A DNA stretch of 35,838 nucleotides. Source: Deinococcales bacterium (GTDB taxonomy: Bacteria; Deinococcota; Deinococci; Deinococcales; JAAFIG01). The translations under genes and the position numbers were made by a program. The stretch spans positions 1 to 35,838 of the forward strand of contig JAYWGM010000026.1 in assembly GCA_043778225.1 (NCBI GenBank). The letters are read 5' to 3'. Positions within the stretch are counted from its first letter, which is position 1, and every line of letters starts with the position of its first letter. Below, in pieces: positions 30,397 through 31,680 of this stretch. The notes below the pieces were generated by a model. The model ran no database searches. It was not told the origin of the DNA and saw nothing but the letters and a program-made list of their open reading frames with translations.

Positions 30397-30447
30397 AAGC
30401 GACCCTGCCCGTGAGCGACCACGCCCGTCAGCGACCCAGCCCGTAAG
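30397..30447. repeat. three 16-bp tandem units abutting the IS110 right end (R arms of nested mini-elements)
   Basis: aag-CGACCCTGCCCGT-gag-CGACCACGCCCGT-cag-CGACCCAGCCCGT-aag. Confidence 0.9.
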
Positions 30448-30455
30448 CAGCCGTG

Positions 30456-31424
30456 TTAAAAGTCAAGCCCCACCCCCACTTTTGCTAGGGTTTTGTCAAC
30501 CCAAGGTGTACGGTCACGCACAATGATATGCAAAATAGCCAATAGTTTACGCATACACGCCACCAAGGCTACCTTCTTGGCTTTCCCAGCAGCCACCAAC
30601 CGTTCATACACAATCTTGATAGCAGGATTGTACCGAACAGCCGTTTGAGCTGCCATGTACAACACAGCTCGCACATTTCCACGACCACCACGAATAAAAC
30701 GCAGACCACGATGACTACCGCTATCATGATTCATCGGAGCAACCCCAACTAAAGCACTCAGGCTCGAGTGAGAAGCCGTTCCTAATTCACGTAAACTCGA
30801 GAGTAGCGTAGCAGATACGACTTTCCCAACACCCGGAACGCTTTGCAGCAGAACGTCTAAGGCTTTCATTTCTGCATCACCACGGATTAAGGTTTGCATT
30901 TGAGCATCCATTTCTGTGCCTTGCTGCTCGAGAAAGTCTATGACCGCTAAGTGACTGACTCGAGTAGTCGCATCGGTTGTGCTTCCGAGACGATTGCGTT
31001 CCATCGTGGTCATCTCGAGGAGTTGTCTGCGACGTGATACGATACTTTCTAGTTCTCGTTCTTGTTGACTAGCGGCAATGGTGATTTCAGGTCGTATCCG
31101 CATTGCAAATTCAGCGAGGATAACAGCATCTATGACATCGGTTTTAGCGAGTTTACCCATAGCTCGAGCAAAATCCTTGACTTGCCTTGGATTAACTACT
31201 GCAATTGGTAGGTTTGCTTCACTGCACGCTAAGAATACGAGTTGTTCGAGTCCTCCTGTTGATTCACAAGTAATCAGTGTTGGTTTTTGTTTCTTGATGT
31301 ATTTGATGAATTGCTTGATACCTTTGGATGTATTTTCAAAGGCTAGGACTTCGCCGGTTGGTAAAATCACAACATCAAGTCGGGGCTTACACACGTCAAT
31401 ACCAACGAATACTTCACTTTTCAT
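30456..31424 (-). CDS. IS110-family DEDD recombinase (322 aa)
   Basis: RuvC-like DEDD residues in VGIDVCK, CESTGG and AKTDVIDA. Tnp domain with [18 protein letters not shown] (catalytic Ser) and [24 protein letters not shown] before ATG 31424. Confidence 0.96.
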
Positions 31425-31434
31425 AAAACCTCCT

Positions 31435-31594
31435 TGAAGCTGCTTCAATATCGTCCTTCCTTGCAAAGCGAACTCGTAATTTAGACGGTTCAGGCAGCCG
31501 TTCGGACTCGGTTGAAGCGAAGTTCAGTACAACAGTCTCGCTTACGGACGACCTCGAAGGTCTAGGTGCGATAGGACTTGTTGTACTGACTCCA
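31435..31594 (-). ncRNA. IS110 bridge RNA (target-binding loop plus donor-binding loop); ends approximate
   Basis: Stem TCAGTACAACA/TGTTGTACTGA encloses left target guide ATCGCACCT and right target guide CCGTAAG. Stem GCTTCAA..GTCC/GGAC..TTGAAGC encloses left donor guide ACGGCTGC and right donor guide TTTGCAAG. The guides match the flanks and element ends. Confidence 0.85.
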
Positions 31595-31607
31595 ATTATT
31601 AACTTAC

Positions 31608-31680
31608 AAGGTGCATCTTTAGGGTCAAGACAGGTGCGCGTTTGTGGTCAAGAGAGGTGCGTGTTTAGGGTCAAGAATAG
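31608..31680. repeat. three 23-bp tandem units abutting the IS110 left end (L arms of nested mini-elements)
   Basis: aag-GTGCATCTTTAGGGTCAAGA-cag-GTGCGCGTTTGTGGTCAAGA-gag-GTGCGTGTTTAGGGTCAAGA-atag. Confidence 0.9.

Follow-up and report, generated by a model that had tools for sequence, protein, structure and literature searches.

How did an insertion sequence (IS) of the IS110 family come to lie in the middle of a mirror-symmetric stack of split short repeats? The question is raised by positions 30397 to 31680 of the window (the whole stretch of DNA that was analysed, 35,838 nt, from contig JAYWGM010000026.1 of a Deinococcales bacterium). The best explanation of the locus as a whole, which is considered probable, is a series of four successive insertions into one spot, the IS110 element being the last to arrive. 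The plus strand reads aag-R1-gag-R2-cag-R3-aag at 30397-30447 and aag-L3-cag-L2-gag-L1-atag at 31608-31680. R and L: left and right halves of a 36-nt unit. A, C, D and E: types of unit. The features of the locus are given below with their coordinates and strand.

30344..31810, plus strand: host repeat resembling a MITE (miniature inverted-repeat transposable element), with terminal inverted repeats ATACCAAATTAAGTTAATCAG... / ...TGATTAAGTTAATTCGGTAT; it encloses all other features (inverted repeat 30344-30375 / 31779-31810).
30400..30412, plus strand: R1, left half of the outermost unit, D type, CGACCCTGCCCGT, followed by linker gag (30413-30415).
30416..30428, plus strand: R2, left half of the middle unit, C type, CGACCACGCCCGT, followed by linker cag (30429-30431).
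30432..30447, plus strand: R3, left half of the innermost unit, A type, CGACCCAGCCCGT, with aag.
30448..31607, minus strand: IS110-family insertion sequence, 1160 bp, present as a single copy in the assembly.
30456..31424, minus strand: predicted gene of an IS110-family RNA-guided recombinase, 322 aa from its ATG.
31425..31607, minus strand: predicted bridge-RNA region, the 5′ non-coding left end of the IS.
31608..31630, plus strand: second aag (copy of the core), then L3, right half of the innermost unit, GTGCATCTTTAGGGTCAAGA.
31634..31653, plus strand: L2, right half of the middle unit, GTGCGCGTTTGTGGTCAAGA, with linker cag before it.
31657..31676, plus strand: L1, right half of the outermost unit, GTGCGTGTTTAGGGTCAAGA, with linker gag before it.
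31734..31771, plus strand: E-type unit standing free outside the nest, CGACCCAAGCCCGT-aag-GTGCTGCTTTCAGGGTCAAGA; it occupies the MITE-like repeat's second unit site.

The three R halves have 13 nt each and a period of 16 (30400-30412, 30416-30428, 30432-30444); the three L halves have 20 nt each and a period of 23 (31611-31630, 31634-31653, 31657-31676). From the outermost level inwards, the arms pair as GACCCT/AGGGTC, GACCAC/GTGGTC and GACCC/GGGTC. The R pattern with its NAG linker is found four times in the window, for 0.00 expected (100 shuffles). Halves, linkers, arm pairs and the free copy at 31734-31771 are as described in a first-pass annotation of this DNA. Two more R-like matches in the window (15444, 25265) lie inside genes, without an L half, and are attributed to chance.

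The array reads as a true nest, in which whole mini-elements were inserted into the centres of earlier copies, because the arms covary by level and because paralogues display the 'before' states. Covariation was measured on quartets, i.e. every distinct innermost R-R-L-L of the genome to which the window belongs (assembly G000: 107 contigs, 4.03 Mb, 89% complete; C-numbers designate its contigs) and of the loci around the R-R junctions of its relatives (n = 48). Nested arm pairing gives on average 10.9 complementary positions out of 12, versus 6.9 for crossed pairing. It is superior in 43 of the 48 quartets, tied in five and inferior in none. All 24 R-R junctions of the genome are in the same orientation (0 inverted).

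These counts bear on the proposal that no insertion took place at all: the two arrays flanking the IS would be products of replication slippage, or the arrangement would be a mis-assembly of a repeat-rich metagenome-assembled genome (MAG). This is so improbable as to be almost negligible. Whole-unit tandem arrays with periods of 38-39 do exist (C42, C51, C52, C15), and the numbers of R and L halves are unequal at C39 and C48; against the proposal stand the subfamilies of R and L, which covary by level in 43 quartets and in none the opposite way, and the uninterrupted nests of C101 and C85. Insertion of whole elements rather than two slippage arrays, as the first-pass annotation had proposed, is therefore retained, these quartets and the paralogous earlier states both supporting it. 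As for mis-assembly, a separately assembled Logan contig (1220 nt, run X1) corresponds to 30418-31637 with 0 differences and covers both IS junctions and the inner two levels. Another (58 nt, runs X1 and X2) matches 30386-30443. X1 and X2 may be the source sample of the MAG, in which case these contigs are the work of a second assembler and not second data. Contigs of runs X3 and X7 contain only parts or relatives of the IS, those of X7 with differences at many places, and were not used. Nests recur in MAGs of several studies. The nest of the window is no artefact of the assembly of one MAG: the same kind of nest is found in eight other genomes.

The earlier states are provided by paralogues of the MITE-like repeat, which were aligned by eye. 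This repeat has about 190 bp and about 30 copies, many of them at contig ends; its left arm matches 29 places of the genome and its right arm 37. Its terminal inverted repeats have 20 nt, and a hairpin lies in its interior (30361-30370 / 30382-30391). Each stage is represented: first site without unit (C24, C15, C28, C95, C32), first site holding the D unit alone, R1-gag-L1 (C12, C71, C55, C60, C98), triple nest without IS, and triple nest with IS (window only). An identical triple nest, uninterrupted and without IS, is found at C101:35055-35168; a triple nest with an E-type outer shell, also without IS, is found at C85:4069-4183. Both contain the intact R3-aag-L3. An intact C unit is nested in another host at C4:14064. 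At the second site, C71 and C85 have the E unit, whereas C12, C24, C95 and C32 lack it (GTTTTTGGGTCAAAC). No orthologous empty site of the window locus was found when the genus was searched for one; the downstream gene occurs only in genome G007, with other neighbours.

Because the paralogues show these states, an order of events can be proposed. The MITE-like repeat of about 190 bp would first have gained a D-type copy of the 36-nt unit, which resembles a repetitive extragenic palindrome (REP). A C-type copy would then have entered the AG at the centre of the D copy, and an A-type copy the AG at the centre of the C copy, each insert being oriented like its host. The whole nested repeat would have been copied to at least three places of the genome. 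Lastly, and in the copy of the window only, the IS110-family element would have entered the innermost unit, whose centre was the sole one left intact. On sequence grounds, this order, the nesting, the target of the IS and the match between guide and target (see below) are taken as established.

The tidiness of this order is weakened by three arrays: two R but three L halves are found at C39, three R and two L halves at C48, and at C58 the linkers (gag, gag, cag) are unmirrored and nested and crossed pairing score equally (11 v 11). Chimeric units, whose R and L come from different subfamilies, are found on C77, C79, C51 and C45. Recombination among copies therefore reshapes the arrays too.

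The first-pass annotation had described the array as having IS110 at the centre. IS110 played no part in building the nest, since the same nest stands without IS at C101 and C85. In a rival scheme, the nest would have grown from the inside out, the IS moving with its flanking target halves and gaining one shell per jump, and IS-free nests being footprints of precise excision. The right end of the IS (CTTGACTTTTAACACGGCTG) does resemble a unit half (73% over 33 nt, 13 nt of which are R3 plus linker), and IS110 elements can form several kinds of circles, according to part of an article on ISPpu9 (PMC12288879). This scheme is very improbable. R-R junctions are present in genomes where neither this IS nor any other IS110 gene was found (five in G011, seven in G017, one in G006). 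Most IS copies of the relatives lie in single units, a further L half being found at about four of 20 left junctions. Units also nest at AG sites that are not targeted by the IS (inside R or L halves), and the shell linkers cag and gag mismatch the IS guide CCGUAAG.

The central element is assigned to the IS110 family on its predicted domains, a DEDD/RuvC-like N-terminal domain and a C-terminal Transposase_20 domain. The recombinase matches PF01548 (E 3e-23), PF02371 (E 3.9e-18) and NF033542, 'IS110 family RNA-guided transposase' (208.3 bits, cut-off 140). Full-length matches are obtained with two transposases whose structures have been solved, those of IS621 (8wt6, E 8.7e-38, residues 6-308) and ISCro4 (9t56, E 3.5e-39). 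The IS has CTT at both ends and no terminal inverted repeats. The flanking aag copies lie at 30445-30447 and 31608-31610, and the ag of the aag linker of R3 is the CT core of the IS target on the opposite strand. IS ends were set from the junctions of relatives (20 left, 23 right) and from the IS-free nests. No further IS110 gene was found in the genome, of which the window copy is the sole one.

The stretch of 183 nt that reaches from the IS left end to the start codon has a strong predicted fold of -65.1 kcal/mol (z -4.35; 0/200 shuffles as good). No family was matched in an Rfam scan of 30300-31900 with E up to 1. Putative guides were assigned by eye against target and donor. Left target guide: GCACCU (31564-31569), in the first loop, corresponding to the left side of the target and the core. 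Right target guide: CCGUAAG (31541-31547), complement of CTTACGG, i.e. the core and the right side of the target. Left donor guide: ACGGCUGCC (31493-31501), in the second loop, matching the IS right end ACGGCTG and the core. Right donor guide: UUUGCAAG (31460-31467), for which pairing with CTTGTAAG, at the left end of the IS, is possible with two G-T wobbles. AAAUUACGAG was considered as right donor guide and dropped, this stretch being missing from the active copies of G007; UUUGCAAG is the conserved candidate. The bridge RNA would be programmed for exactly the innermost centre, GCAC-CT-TACGG (IS strand).

Relatives of the IS are found in eight of the 18 other genomes of the family. Their distinct left junctions all read CAC-CTT-GTAAGTT (20/20), and 22 of the 23 distinct right junctions read CGGCT(G/A)-CT-n-(A/T)CGGG, where n is t, a or g and the R half begins after it. 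In every full-length copy having guide and flank on one contig (6/6), the right target guide corresponds exactly to the flank. Four variants of this guide are found: CCGUAAG, CCCGAAG, CCGAUAG and CCGUCAG. Because guide and flank covary in all six, the IS lineage appears to have retuned its guide to variants of the unit centre. The base that follows the core is always the IS's own T at the left junction and that of the host at the right one. The aag..aag around the IS had been taken as a direct repeat; since the IS brings its own T, it is a coincidence, due to a host with an aag centre. Where the host is centred on cag or tag, insertion of the IS leaves unmirrored linkers, as that of nested units does.

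Some observations concern the ends of the IS. The last 20 nt of its right end (CTTGACTTTTAACACGGCTG, IS strand; window 30448-30471) are shared by 22 of the 23 right junctions of relatives, whose overall identity is only 64-100%; in locus L195, the last base is A. The right end loosely resembles the unit (CTTGAC ... ACGG(G)CTG). At L032 (G014:C421), the R and L of a unit are separated only by 17 nt matching the IS left end (tcccaccattaacttac), with flanks cag / aag. This insert looks like a remnant of an otherwise deleted IS.

The relation between IS and unit runs in both directions. Among 11 IS left ends that were aligned, eight have a bridge-RNA gene whose left donor guide is interrupted, at a CT, by a unit (ACGG-CT-[unit]-CT-GCC). 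The eight genes belong to G003, G012 (twice), G014 (twice), G015, G016 and G018. Copies without a unit in the donor guide are those of the window (31493-31501, minus strand), G007 and G005. The inserts belong to two unit subfamilies.

L185, L186, L188, L190, L193, L200, L203, L206: unit-bearing IS left ends; L200 has two units in tandem.

The unit-bearing copies seem to have stayed mobile, because they are found at different sites in one genome (L186 and L203 of G014). If their bridge RNAs are active, a large hairpin would be tolerable inside a donor guide, which bears on the design of bridge recombinases.

What, then, is the unit? It is a REP-like family confined to one family of uncultured Deinococcales. 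The assembly contains 115 full units (strict pattern), as singles, nests and head-to-tail arrays, the latter (periods 38-39) also on C31, C98 and C1. R and L halves form matched subfamilies: CCA with ATCTTTAGGG, CAT with ATGG, CAC with GTGG and CCT with AGGG; GATCCC/GGGATC, GGTTTC/GAAACC and GATGCC/GGCATC are further ones found in relatives. Over 89 distinct R/L combinations, which include 27 distinct arm hexamers, arm complementarity averages 4.91/6, versus 3.59 with shuffled partners (reached by 0/2000 shuffles). The predicted stem has 5-6 bp and the loop about 20 nt. Of the 18 other genomes of the same family, which span four genera, 15 have the unit pattern, and none of 22 genomes from four other families of the order has it; R-R junctions are found in nine of the 19 genomes of the family. 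A scan of bacteria and archaea, with one genome per species, gave at least 114 matching stretches. Among the matches listed, every record with many matches is a MAG entitled 'Deinococcales bacterium'; the remaining ones, from high-G+C genomes of other groups, are judged from the listing to be chance. A listing of solo R or L halves gave mostly coding-sequence noise.

The linkers tell how the unit inserts. According to the first-pass annotation, nested pairs always share the flanking NAG. Only the AG is common: both linkers end in AG in all 48 quartets, and the three-base linker is mirrored in 13 of them, 12 of these being cag..cag, the commonest linker on either side. Among a wider set of 60 host/insert pairs, inspected by eye, about 29 right linkers have two bases (AG) and 16 pairs are mirrored. 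On the left, the linker is the centre of the host itself; on the right, it is AG or cAG, as between units of tandem arrays. The search for nests in the genome and its relatives, which the annotation had suggested, thus found nests to be common, but neither mirrored linkers nor, at C39 and C48, equal numbers of R and L halves as a rule.

Comparison of filled and empty paralogues indicates that each insertion adds the unit plus 2 nt. At the first site of the MITE-like repeat, GACTA|AAAGG becomes GACTA-AG-unit-AAAGG (empty form: GACTAAAAGG). Another pair reads GTTTT-TG-GGTC and GTTTT-TG-unit-TG-GGTC. A copy of a second palindrome family changes from GGACA|GACCCC to GGACA-GG-unit-GACCCC. Units are also found at an AG within R halves (CCAAG|) and L halves (TTTAG|), in the loops of a palindrome family headed by GTAGGG and in GGTTAAAA tandem repeats. 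The left flank of 69 free units is AG (42), GG (17) or TG (8).

The second palindrome family (AGGACAGACAC-GGGG-GTCTGTCCCTAC; six matches in a strict search) is a favoured landing site. One of its copies lies upstream of a gene related to those of REP-associated tyrosine transposases (RAYT). It contains an A-type unit in G000 (L225) and a B-type unit in G006 (L227) and is empty in G001 and G007 (L228, L229).

For the agent that moves the unit, an HUH-type single-strand mechanism is put forward tentatively, as possible rather than probable, RAYT being the best candidate type. The mini-element would travel as a single-stranded copy of about 38 nt. Cutting and joining would occur beside an (A/G/T)G dinucleotide exposed in a hairpin loop. 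The enzyme would be a RAYT-type single-strand HUH nuclease encoded elsewhere in the genome, and IS110 would be a later guest using the element as a landing pad. This proposal is favoured by insertion sites that are short, varied and located in palindrome loops. A RAYT-like open reading frame (ORF) of 221 aa is present at C32:27216-27881 (within locus L225, C32:27216-27941; NF047646, E 5e-16; PF01797, E 8e-9); it was found only by tblastn with proteins of relatives. Relatives of this gene are found in 17 of 19 genomes. Of 27 RAYT-like loci, three have a unit close upstream (25 bp in G000 and G006, 55 bp in G018). None of these 27 loci has a unit within 500 bp downstream, the nearest two lying at 510 and 635 bp (L226, L247). 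A PF01797 search of the genome itself gave only IS605-type tnpA (141 aa) and tnpB (394 aa) genes (C28:83300-84500, L001), with no units beside them.

Several points weigh against an HUH enzyme of this type. With 58.9 bits, the RAYT-like protein falls short of the NCBIfam cut-off of 80, and its ORF contains an in-frame inverted pair of another palindrome (GTAGGGGCGACCCTTGTGGTCGCCCTG). RAYT-like genes are also found in G010 and G013, where no units were seen. The unit upstream of the RAYT-like gene occupies a palindrome of the second family whose counterparts in G001 and G007 are empty, and the adjacency of unit and gene may only reflect the palindrome as a favoured target. Against the structural premise, rather than the HUH enzyme, stand the unremarkable folding energies (z -0.7 to -0.9 for single-unit hairpins, about 0 for the triple nest); the hairpin is therefore deduced from covariation, the stability of single units not being unusual. 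Also against an HUH enzyme, the dinucleotide flanking a free unit recurs on its far side in 38 of 69 cases, for 28.4 expected from shuffles, and in 12 of 27 cases with non-AG flanks, for 5.2 expected, a test that overstates the effect because many loci are paralogues. Such a recurrence has the look of a shared core or of a duplication of 2 nt, and neither is produced by HUH transposition.

The same recurrence would be expected if the unit were an ultra-short MITE, moved by a DDE transposase with a 2-3 bp target duplication and carrying a preferred target in its centre. The repeated dinucleotide (38/69 vs 28.4), the filled/empty pair with TG..TG and the arms, which form short inverted repeats, agree with this. 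At the first site of the MITE-like repeat, however, the two sides of the insert differ (GACTA-AG-unit-AA-AGG vs the empty GACTAAAAGG), and the three-base linkers are unmirrored in 35 of the 48 nests. No parent element with CGACC... / ...GGTCAAGA ends was seen. Moreover, 36 bp is too short for both double-stranded DNA ends to meet in one transpososome. A DDE transposase is highly unlikely.

In another proposed mechanism, the unit would be a non-autonomous IS110-type element. It would form a small circle whose junction, GGTCG-CT-(n)TCTTGACC, serves as donor; an IS110-type recombinase acting in trans, with a bridge RNA different from that of this IS, would join it to the CT core in the centre of another unit. 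Unit and IS enter the host unit at the same dinucleotide and have the same asymmetric junctions, with the host base on the R side and an insert-specific base on the L side. Each nested insert has AG on both sides (48/48), and unit plus 2 nt are added per insertion. At about four loci with non-AG sites, examined by eye, the target dinucleotide is kept at the left or at the right junction, which fits a 2-nt staggered strand exchange between unlike cores. According to part of a preprint (10.64898/2026.08.31.748434), the excision product of IS621 is mostly a single-stranded circle, and half-matched sites are tolerated by this element; as such an excision is reported there, a 38-nt circle would be physically possible.

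An IS110-type origin of the unit's movement is nevertheless unlikely. The sole IS110 gene of the genome has donor guides for its own ends and not for GGTCG-CT-TCTTGACC. This mismatch had been noted by the first-pass annotation, and it holds; the second recombinase or bridge RNA that was deduced from it does not appear as any second IS110 gene or bridge RNA in the genome. Nests are present in G006, G011 and G017, where neither an IS110 gene nor IS DNA was found (weak evidence, these genomes being MAGs). The sites of the unit are too varied (A-run, TG or GG flanks, AG in R or L halves, palindrome loops) for a guide of about 14 nt, and only 42 of 69 free units have AG as left flank. More specifically, unit and IS110 lineage could be partners: IS110-type exchange at a 2-nt core, supplied in trans, would move the unit in the form of a single-stranded circle of about 38 nt. 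Such a partnership is distinctly unlikely. If true, it would make the unit the smallest known passenger of a bridge recombinase, and the units found in the donor loop of most IS relatives would belong to the partnership, for instance by providing an RNA guide ending in GGGUCG-CU, the unit's own end. The share of probability left by HUH, IS110 and DDE falls to an enzyme not yet recognised.

The unit can be compared with REPs and with REPINs (inverted doublets of REPs). Like the repeats of REP/REPIN-RAYT systems, it is short, extragenic and present in about a hundred copies per genome, with covarying arms; it occurs as singles, tandem arrays and clusters, and RAYT-like genes are present, one with a unit just upstream, their link with the unit being putative. 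Unlike a REPIN, it has a single stem of 5-6 bp with a loop of about 20 nt and forms no inverted doublet (0 inverted vs 24 direct junctions). It has no GTAG head, and it differs further in inserting exactly into its own loop centre, up to three deep and always in the same orientation. Mention is made of REPINs inserted into or beside REPINs in a part of Bertels and Rainey 2011 (PMC3116915). Crude literature searches turned up neither a 36-nt unit that nests exactly in itself at several levels nor a bridge-RNA gene with a unit inside. Small dispersed repeats of Nostoc and other cyanobacteria are reportedly also gene-less, mobile, hairpin-capable and tens of nt long, and are said to land in other repeats; the present unit belongs to a different phylum and has an unrelated sequence.

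On the usual view, a piece of mobile DNA either carries its own gene or has ends of sufficient length to be gripped by a transposase. The 36-nt element reaches more than 100 copies, inserts exactly into its own loop and forms nests three deep. It may be among the smallest mobile units known.

The window IS resembles IS621 (Escherichia coli) and ISPpu9/ISPpu10 (Pseudomonas putida) by its DEDD recombinase, with full-length homology to IS621. It shares with the IS110 elements that home to REPs a structured 5′ RNA with target and donor guides (predicted here), a CT core on both sides and a target in the middle of a short extragenic palindromic repeat. Durrant 2024 is reportedly to be named among work on IS110 bridge-RNA elements homing to REP sequences. 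Insertion of IS110 elements into REPs is well known, as stated in parts of two articles (Tobes and Pareja 2006, PMC1525189; Pares-Guillen 2025, PMC12288879). Unlike for IS621, ISPpu9 and ISPpu10, the target is here a self-nesting 36-nt unit, so that the IS can sit in a stack of split repeats; the lineage appears to have retuned its right target guide to four centre variants (6/6), and a unit is inserted in the bridge-RNA donor loop of eight of 11 relatives. No description of guide retuning or of unit insertion in a donor loop was found in those parts of the IS110 literature that were surveyed. An IS110 lineage that tracks a repeat over evolution by retuning seven guide bases would be a natural example of bridge-RNA reprogramming. 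What is added here is the series of staged paralogues, the failure of the mirrored-NAG rule, the covariation of IS guide and target, and the units in the bridge-RNA gene.

A last observation concerns the palindrome CTCGAG. It is extremely frequent in loci of this family of genomes (28 sites in 3663 bp at L225). It is also found inside the window IS, which suggests a long residence of the IS in the lineage.

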